64,000 nucleotides of DNA, taken from the NCBI RefSeq assembly GCF_001677475.2, contig NZ_CP015229.1. The stretch is one strand, 5' to 3'. Under the pieces are notes generated by a model. That model did no database searches. It was not told where the DNA came from and worked only from the letters and a program-made list of their open reading frames with translations. Of the stretch, positions 20,836-21,462 are shown one piece after another; the stretch's first letter is position 1, and each line of letters starts with the position of its first letter. Source of the DNA: Escherichia coli (lineage in GTDB: Bacteria > Pseudomonadota > Gammaproteobacteria > Enterobacterales > Enterobacteriaceae). A program made the translations under genes and the position numbers.

Positions 20836-21462
20836 TTACTGACGCTGGAGCGACTTCAGCGTCAGATACCCACTCCATACCCGCGTAAAGGTCGTCATCC
20901 AGCACAACGCACCAAATACCCACGCAAACCACGGAAAACAGGTCGGAAAGAGGCAACTCAGAACAAACAGCAAAATCGTCTCGCTGCCTTCGGTTAACCC
21001 GCCCAGATAATAAAACGATTTATGCGCATAACCGGGATTATCAATCTGATGTTTCGCCGCCAGCGCAGCAAAAGCGAGAAAACTGCTGCCCGTGCCGATA
21101 AACGCAAACAGCAGCCAGCCGCCTGCCAGGGCGTTTTGCTGCGGTGCGGCGAGGATAAACCCAAAAGGCACCAGTGCGTAAAAAAGAAAATCGAGAGAAA
21201 TATCAAGAAAGCCGCCCGCGTCGGTAAGCCCTCTGCGCCGCGCCAGCGCACCGTCCAGACCATCAAGCAGCCTGTTCAACAAAATGACAACTAGCGCCGC
21301 CAGATACCAGCCCAGCGCCAAAAAAGGCAGTGCCAGCACACCGATGGCAAATCCCACTAATGTTAAACCATCTGGCGTAATGCCCGGTTTATCAAGAACC
21401 CGCACGCACTGATGCAACAACGGTTTAATCCGGGGATGAAGATGGCGGTCTAGCACAGGCAC
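20836..21462 (-). CDS. ynjF: CDP-alcohol phosphatidyltransferase family membrane protein
   Basis: ORF track 208 aa; DG..AR..G..D..G motif region; exact start uncertain by a few codons. Confidence 0.8.
   Translation of the reverse strand: MPVLDRHLHPRIKPLLHQCVRVLDKPGITPDGLTLVGFAIGVLALPFLALGWYLAALVVILLNRLLDGLDGALARRRGLTDAGGFLDISLDFLFYALVPFGFILAAPQQNALAGGWLLFAFIGTGSSFLAFAALAAKHQIDNPGYAHKSFYYLGGLTEGSETILLFVLSCLFPTCFPWFAWVFGALCWMTTFTRVWSGYLTLKSLQRQ

Follow-up and report, generated by a model that had tools for sequence, protein, structure and literature searches.

A hairpin at positions 20839-20865 of the window (the whole 64,000-nucleotide stretch of E. coli DNA that we analyzed) sits at the 3′ end of the ynjE mRNA as mapped by Term-seq in K-12. 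The structure lies within the coding sequence of ynjF, the gene that converges on ynjE from the opposite strand. We favor the explanation, with a probability of roughly 0.6, that it is the 3′-end protective stem-loop of a ynjE transcript that is probably terminated by Rho further downstream and then trimmed back to the stem. The mapped end, the anatomy of the hairpin and its surroundings, and the pattern of substitutions in related genera all bear on this reading and on its alternatives.

ynjE, which encodes a sulfurtransferase, occupies 19520-20827 on the + strand, and ynjF, which encodes a member of the CDP-alcohol phosphatidyltransferase family, occupies 20836-21456 on the − strand. Both starts follow the RefSeq orthologues; the first in-frame ATG of ynjE lies at 19505, and the longest open reading frame for ynjF extends to 21462. 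The ynjE stop codon (TAA, 20825-20827) and the ynjF stop codon (TAA on the − strand, seen as tta at 20836-20838 on the + strand) are separated by only the 8 bp at 20828-20835, as a preliminary description of this DNA had stated. A 501-bp query found a match in 5,423 of 5,426 complete E. coli genomes, always at ynjE/ynjF and with 89-98.8% identity. In seven diverse E. coli the hairpin arms were invariant, with a loop change in one strain, and an 86-nt stretch free of differences from K-12 (20792-20877) spans the junction.

Across ynjE-ynjF, the mean divergence of the window from K-12 was 4.5%. Between 20716 and 21180 the comparison with K-12 showed hyper-divergent flanks: 20716-20752 alone holds 9 differences, and around 20914-20984 the count reaches as many as 21 per 90 nt. 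In the region of the ynjE-ynjF junction, the window shares only 91-93% identity with most E. coli genomes. The low identity and the divergent flanks suggest that the ynjF allele may be mosaic or recombinant. With respect to regulation, ynjE is transcribed in K-12 from a promoter of its own that FNR activates (PMC3688515); in the window, a search upstream of ynjE for an FNR box with ≤2 mismatches found none. An intragenic sigma54 motif of K-12 ynjE (GTGGCGCAGATTATGCT, PMC4591121) is present at 20234-20250 (+) with one mismatch (GTGGCGCAAATTATGCT). These literature sigma54 and FNR sites are located at other places within or ahead of ynjE and have nothing to do with the hairpin (PMC4591121, PMC3688515).

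The two arms of the hairpin, ctgacgctg (20839-20847) and cagcgtcag (20857-20865), are exact reverse complements when the window sequence is read directly, and a 9-nt spacer (gagcgactt, 20848-20856) lies between them. The preliminary description had reported a perfect 9-bp hairpin with an N9 spacer, 12 bp past the ynjE stop and inside the C-terminal codons of ynjF, and the sequence agrees on each point: all nine pairs are perfect (six of them G-C), the structure starts 11 nt past the ynjE stop codon, i.e., at the 12th base after it, and on the − strand it makes up the last nine ynjF codons (L-T-L-K-S-L-Q-R-Q).

Folding of both strands showed a hairpin that is stable in either sense and stronger in the ynjE sense. 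As ynjE-sense RNA it gains three extra inner pairs (20848-20850 with 20854-20856; G.U, A-U, and G-C), so that 12 pairs enclose a 3-nt loop at 20851-20853, with an energy of −18.3 kcal/mol, a z-score of −5.3, and 0 of 200 shuffles equally stable. The ynjF-sense fold is weaker (−14.3 kcal/mol, z = −4.4) because two inner pairs turn into A.C mismatches. The 41-nt ynjE 3′ UTR as a whole folds at −19.4 kcal/mol (z = −5.0). We annotate the element as a + strand stem-loop at 20839-20865 that is probably functional as ynjE-sense RNA, on the basis of its sequence, its folds, its invariant arms, covariation, and codon conservation.

Taken alone, one perfect 9-bp repeat somewhere in 64 kb could be a chance event, and the evidence for this hairpin therefore has to come from comparisons and experiments. 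In the 64-kb window we counted 15 distinct perfect inverted repeats (≥9 bp, loops of 3-12 nt), whereas first-order Markov simulations gave 2.4 ± 1.3. The right arm occurs nowhere else in the window, and the left arm has one further copy, at 8011. Rfam covariance models run over 19400-21600 returned no family match, and the two hits elsewhere were at chance level (E = 0.16 and 0.18, far below gathering scores). Elsewhere in the window, perfect 11-12-bp hairpins at 34825-34852, 36710-36734, and 61146-61172 are bordered by an A-run and, on the opposite side, a T-run (e.g., AAAAAGAGCGACTTCGGTCGCTCTTTTT). These look like classical bidirectional intrinsic terminators, unlike the U-less hairpin at ynjE.

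The experimental data come from K-12. A re-analysis of the Dar and Sorek Term-seq data (the TRS table) reports a + strand terminus at NC_000913.3 1840811-1840820, with 1840815 as the dominant position (PMC10687069 Supplementary Data 2). This ynjE 3′ terminus has a signal of 0.978 and adjusted p-values of 1e-55, 6e-56, and 4e-93 in three Term-seq replicates, and it is placed in the class “Primary” (PMC10687069). An ungapped alignment allowed K-12 positions to be transferred (window position = record position − 1819947), which puts the hairpin at 1840786-1840812 in NC_000913.3 and the steady-state ynjE 3′ end at 20864-20873 (+) in the window, dominant at 20868. The NC_000913.3 coordinate system was checked on the tabulated ffs and chiX ends, which lie within about 2 nt of the annotated NC_000913.3 3′ ends of these genes.

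The dominant ynjE end, in an AUA, lies 3 nt past the end of the stem at 20865 (+3). The hairpin had been proposed to be tied to a transcript end, with Term-seq ends anticipated near 20835-20870, and for ynjE this proposal holds, with a primary terminus just past the stem and inside that interval. The end was found in one data set. It has no entry among the listed parts of an E. coli RNAtag-seq sheet or of the Adams et al. 2021 tables, and neither ynjE nor ynjF is among the listed entries of the Adams et al. 2021 supplements. Low aerobic expression of ynjE could explain why the end is missing from the other data sets.

For the comparative data, 80 genome loci encoding YnjF were fetched, and 35 Enterobacteriaceae sequences were placed in an ungapped alignment. 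The arms CTGACGCTG/CAGCGTCAG were found again in Escherichia, most Citrobacter, Leclercia, Raoultella, Silvania, and one Enterobacter, with a loop that was free to vary. In the 35-sequence alignment, 92.6% of cells were paired vs. 29-42% with slid partners, and RNAalifold predicted the identical helix. Cells changed on both sides numbered 11, compared to 5.4 ± 1.6 in shuffles, of which 0 of 500 reached 11; as the sequences are related, this is not to be read as a probability. These statistics treat species as independent, and the independent compensatory events behind them number only about three.

The outermost pair of the stem was C-G in 23 sequences, A-U in 6, and G-C in 2, and these changes are non-synonymous on both sides of the hairpin. 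The corresponding codons are Leu CTG and Gln CAG, which become Met ATG and His CAT in Kluyvera and Val GTG and His CAC in Pseudocitrobacter, so that in each of the two genera the His codon matches the partner base. At another pair, Raoultella ornithinolytica carries CTGGCGCTG/CAGCGCCAG, an A-U to G-C change for which relatives show G.U intermediates.

Synonymous variation pointed the same way. We compared stem conservation with synonymous variation, a check that the preliminary description had called for, and found the scorable stem codons to be among the most codon-conserved in ynjF. The four scorable stem codons had major-codon frequencies of 0.89-1.00, compared to a ynjF mean of 0.66 (permutation p = 7e-5). 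Thr ACG was kept at 0.94, the top of 7 conserved Thr columns, while ACC and ACG are used about equally elsewhere in the gene. The Leu CTG stem codon, also at 0.94, was joint top of 29 Leu columns, Arg CGT at 0.89 was the top of 8, and Gln CAG reached 1.00. By contrast, the Lys codon in the loop varies freely (AAA in 19, AAG in 14). Judged from these aligned sequences, the base pairing is under selection, and the hairpin is a real and conserved structure. Given its conservation and covariation, it is not a chance palindrome.

Two Enterobacter loci carry a shifted hairpin at the ynjF end, GTGACG-N9-CGTCAC with 6-7 bp, that lies 2 nt past the ynjE stop. Their YnjF tail, VTLKSRHA, lacks one codon relative to the VTLRxCQRH of Pseudocitrobacter, which would fit a 3-nt deletion that brought the same stem back into register.

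We rejected a canonical intrinsic terminator as the identity of the hairpin. The two have in common a GC-rich stem of similar length and energy soon after a stop codon, but the ynjE hairpin has no U-tract on either strand and no upstream A-tract. In the ynjE sense, the 8 nt after the stem are AUACCCAC, and the AUACCCACUCC that follows the stem has 1 U in its first 8 nt; in the ynjF sense, the stem is followed by UAAUUGCA. On neither strand does the stem lead into a U run (≥5 of 8) that contains the 3′ end, and a consensus terminator scan did not call the hairpin. The claim that the hairpin is a terminator was thus not borne out, and its anatomy instead fits the protective stem-loops of Rho-dependent transcripts.

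Still, the hairpin could be a true terminator of another kind, non-canonical intrinsic or bidirectional, and possibly helped by head-on polymerase collisions. We consider this unlikely, although the stem is stable and GC-rich with a precise 3′ end just beyond it, and the two genes converge with stops only 8 bp apart. Bidirectional terminators of convergent gene pairs, reportedly described by Ju et al. in 2019, and RNAP collision sites likewise involve a single hairpin at closely spaced convergent genes, here within them. Such elements usually have A/U-rich flanks that let the hairpin terminate in both directions, whereas the hairpin flanks in the ynjE sense (AAUUA...AUACCC) are not of this A-rich/U-rich type, and only a + strand end is documented. 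A further point in favor of termination is a published model in which a stem-loop in nascent RNA sets the place where polymerases from two convergent genes collide head-on (Wang et al. bioRxiv 10.1101/2022.10.23.513370). Dar and Sorek 2018 also leave room for stems of this type to take a direct part in termination. On the other side, the mapped ynjE end falls at +3 and not 7-9 nt past the stem within a U-tract, the post-stem sequence in the ynjF sense is not U-rich in other genera, and no − strand 3′ end was found at the hairpin among the listed entries of the TRS table. Moreover, ynjE-ynjF is listed with the convergent pairs whose transcripts overlap in 50% or more of 58 RNA-seq data sets (PMC12288877), and transcription therefore runs past the junction.

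A broader proposal would make the U-tract-less hairpin a programmed boundary for both convergent transcripts, one that positions head-on collisions or limits antisense overlap. FNR-induced anaerobic transcription of ynjE would then switch ynjF off in an excludon-like manner, and the need for the stem would have acted on the C-terminal residues of YnjF (Leu/Gln to Met/His to Val/His). We regard this combination as quite doubtful.

The reading that we prefer, a protective stem-loop behind which Rho probably terminates transcription, also draws on the sequence beyond the stem. The candidate rut region at 20866-20945 (+), identified by composition, is a C-rich and G-poor stretch of untranslated ynjE-sense RNA antisense to ynjF codons. 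Over the 80 nt past the stem, C makes up 37.5% and G 16.3% (C/G 2.3), which places C-minus-G at the 99.3rd percentile of all + strand 80-nt windows in the whole window. RNA polymerase coming from ynjE, from the promoter that is FNR-activated in K-12, would pass the stop codon, transcribe the hairpin 11 nt later, and run on into this C-rich, G-poor untranslated RNA antisense to ynjF. There transcription would stop diffusely inside antisense ynjF, most likely through Rho, and 3′-to-5′ exonucleases (PNPase, RNase II) would then remove the tail as far as the stable 12-bp stem and so produce the uniform end at +3. The hairpin would in this way both define and protect the ynjE 3′ end, while being written antisense into the last nine ynjF codons.

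This sequence of events follows a class of Rho-dependent transcripts described in Dar and Sorek 2018, the precise steady-state ends of which lie directly after stable stem-loops without U-tracts. In that account, the sequence downstream is mildly enriched in C over G, some of the ends fall inside downstream coding regions, and the ends are made by PNPase/RNase II trimming after diffuse termination further on. ynjE shares with the class the stable stem-loop directly before a precise end (stem to 20865, dominant end at 20868), the absence of a U-rich tail, the excess of C over G just downstream, and an element sitting in the coding region of the downstream gene; its end was moreover mapped in these authors' own Term-seq data. 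What ynjE adds to the class as described is cross-genus covariation with coordinated amino-acid changes in the YnjF tail, and for ynjE we infer Rho and trimming.

The protective stem-loop should act in the ynjE sense, and the comparative data, apart from one uninformative test, decide which strand the structure serves. We rejected the wobble bias of single-sided arm substitutions as a strand test. Single-sided synonymous arm transitions stood at 6:2 for ynjE-sense wobble, a ratio equal to the 6:2 ratio of the available mutations. As this bias was uninformative, the T/C site that closes the loop was used instead. In 27 of 28 Leu/Val cases, the last base of the codon before the right arm (CTT, CTC, GTT, or GTC) was T or C, compared to about 30% for these codon families elsewhere in ynjF, and the non-T cases were C in 7 of 8 (expected 18%, p = 4e-5). 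A C at this site leaves a G.U pair in ynjE-sense RNA, where T leaves A-U, and an A.C mismatch in ynjF-sense RNA.

Energies across species showed a similar asymmetry. In the 24 species with abutting genes, the ynjE-sense energy was uniform (−16.7 ± 1.6 kcal/mol, never weaker than −14.4), whereas the ynjF-sense energy drifted (−15.2 ± 3.0, reaching −7.7 at its weakest). Nearly all carrier genera have the hairpin 6-13 nt from the ynjE stop (21 nt in one Pseudocitrobacter locus), and its distance to the ynjF stop varies from 0 to 15 nt across genera. By these measures, pairing is best kept in the ynjE sense.

The structure might nonetheless serve the ynjF mRNA on the − strand, either as a 3′ protective stem or by acting on translation at the end of the open reading frame, an idea that we find improbable. 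The ynjF-sense hairpin is also stable in most species (mean −15.2 kcal/mol), Watson-Crick compensations preserve pairing in both senses, and the hairpin persists in some Citrobacter despite a REP-like insert between it and ynjE. Yet the position of the hairpin is fixed relative to the ynjE stop and not the ynjF stop. In Leclercia, Kluyvera, and Pseudocitrobacter, ynjF runs on for 12-15 nt beyond the hairpin, and a ynjF transcript ending at, or trimmed to, the stem in these genera would therefore lack a stop codon. The T-to-C change at the loop-closing site breaks ynjF-sense pairing but is common, with G and A avoided, and the drift of the ynjF-sense energy to −7.7 also speaks against this idea, as does the presence of another structure that is available to ynjF.

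That structure is a terminator-like site on the − strand at 20799-20777, in the last ynjE codons, where the consensus scan and folding identified CCGGTTGCAACCGG with ATTTTTTGG after it, some 37 nt beyond the ynjF stop. Kluyvera retains the site, and Pseudocitrobacter has compensatory changes in it (CCCGT..ACGGG + GTTTTT). No 3′ end was found at this site among the listed TRS table entries, nor was any − strand 3′ end listed there between 1840700 and 1840829 (PMC10687069), an absence that is weak evidence given the extent of that listing; ynjF may also be poorly expressed. As read from the sequence, the hairpin with its T-run at 20799-20777 is a better candidate than the 20839-20865 hairpin for ending ynjF transcripts, and it is likely that the 3′ structure of each gene sits in the coding end of the other. 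The preliminary description had held that the 20839-20865 hairpin was the only structure available to terminate either transcript, which does not stand given this second site. That the hairpin ends the ynjF transcript is likewise unsupported, considering the lack of a nearby − strand end among the listed entries, the loss of the stop codon from a stem-ended transcript in some genera, and the separate T-run hairpin.

The idea that the palindrome has no RNA function, being a by-product of protein sequence and codon bias or else a protein-bound DNA site, is very improbable: it is true that LTL...QRQ in common E. coli codons yields the palindrome automatically, that CTG/CAG and ACG/CGT are reverse-complement codon pairs of mostly preferred codons, and that about 2.4 perfect 9-bp hairpins per window are expected by chance, but genera differ in both the length and the sequence of the rest of the YnjF C-terminal tail, the Leu/Gln, Met/His, and Val/His replacements are coordinated down to the choice of His codon, Thr ACG is held where ACC would serve about as often elsewhere in the gene, the G.U-type variation at the loop-closing site points to RNA rather than DNA, and a transcript ends at the stem.

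A stable hairpin of some kind lies within 50 nt of the ynjE stop in nearly every species. In E. albertii, Cedecea, and Enterobacteriaceae bacterium MGYG-HGUT-00110, another hairpin intervenes and the in-ORF hairpin is absent. These three loci have a ynjE-ynjF gap of 645-948 nt, an unrelated sequence as the YnjF tail, and a strong, different hairpin directly past the ynjE stop. In 12 Citrobacter loci, REP-like inserts of 42-100 nt lie between ynjF and ynjE; they form hairpins of the GCCGGATG...CATCCGGC type, and the in-ORF hairpin is intact in some of these loci and decayed in others. The in-ORF stem was weakened in 6 of the 12 loci with REP-like inserts vs. 0 of 24 loci with adjacent genes (Fisher p = 5e-4, uncorrected for phylogeny). 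In several Citrobacter, the hairpin persists though the REP-like element is closer to ynjE, which may reflect either a second role or a recent insertion. The protective stem-loop at ynjE resembles the REP/BIME elements that stabilize mRNA 3′ ends, as these too are hairpins past stop codons that block 3′ exonucleases, and REP-like inserts occur at this same junction in some Citrobacter. It differs from them in being single-copy and coding and in lacking the REP consensus.

The hairpin is, in sum, most likely an ordinary member of a known E. coli class, and the ynjE 3′ end was already present in a published table. What may be new is that the stem is kept up from genus to genus through compensatory changes that also alter the YnjF tail it overlaps; in the literature consulted on ynjE-ynjF, we found no description of covariation with coordinated changes in this tail.

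Practically, these results supply the exact boundary of the ynjE transcript. They also add two cautions: codon changes at the end of ynjF that count as “synonymous” may affect ynjE expression, and a hairpin near a stop codon is not always a terminator. For the organism, ynjE is a further, well-documented case of the general pattern in which E. coli mRNAs without an intrinsic terminator nevertheless end at a protective stem-loop. Both the codons and the amino acids of the YnjF tail appear to be under constraint from the antisense RNA structure, and the locus shows how strongly a stem can be conserved when it is written inside the coding sequence of a converging gene.
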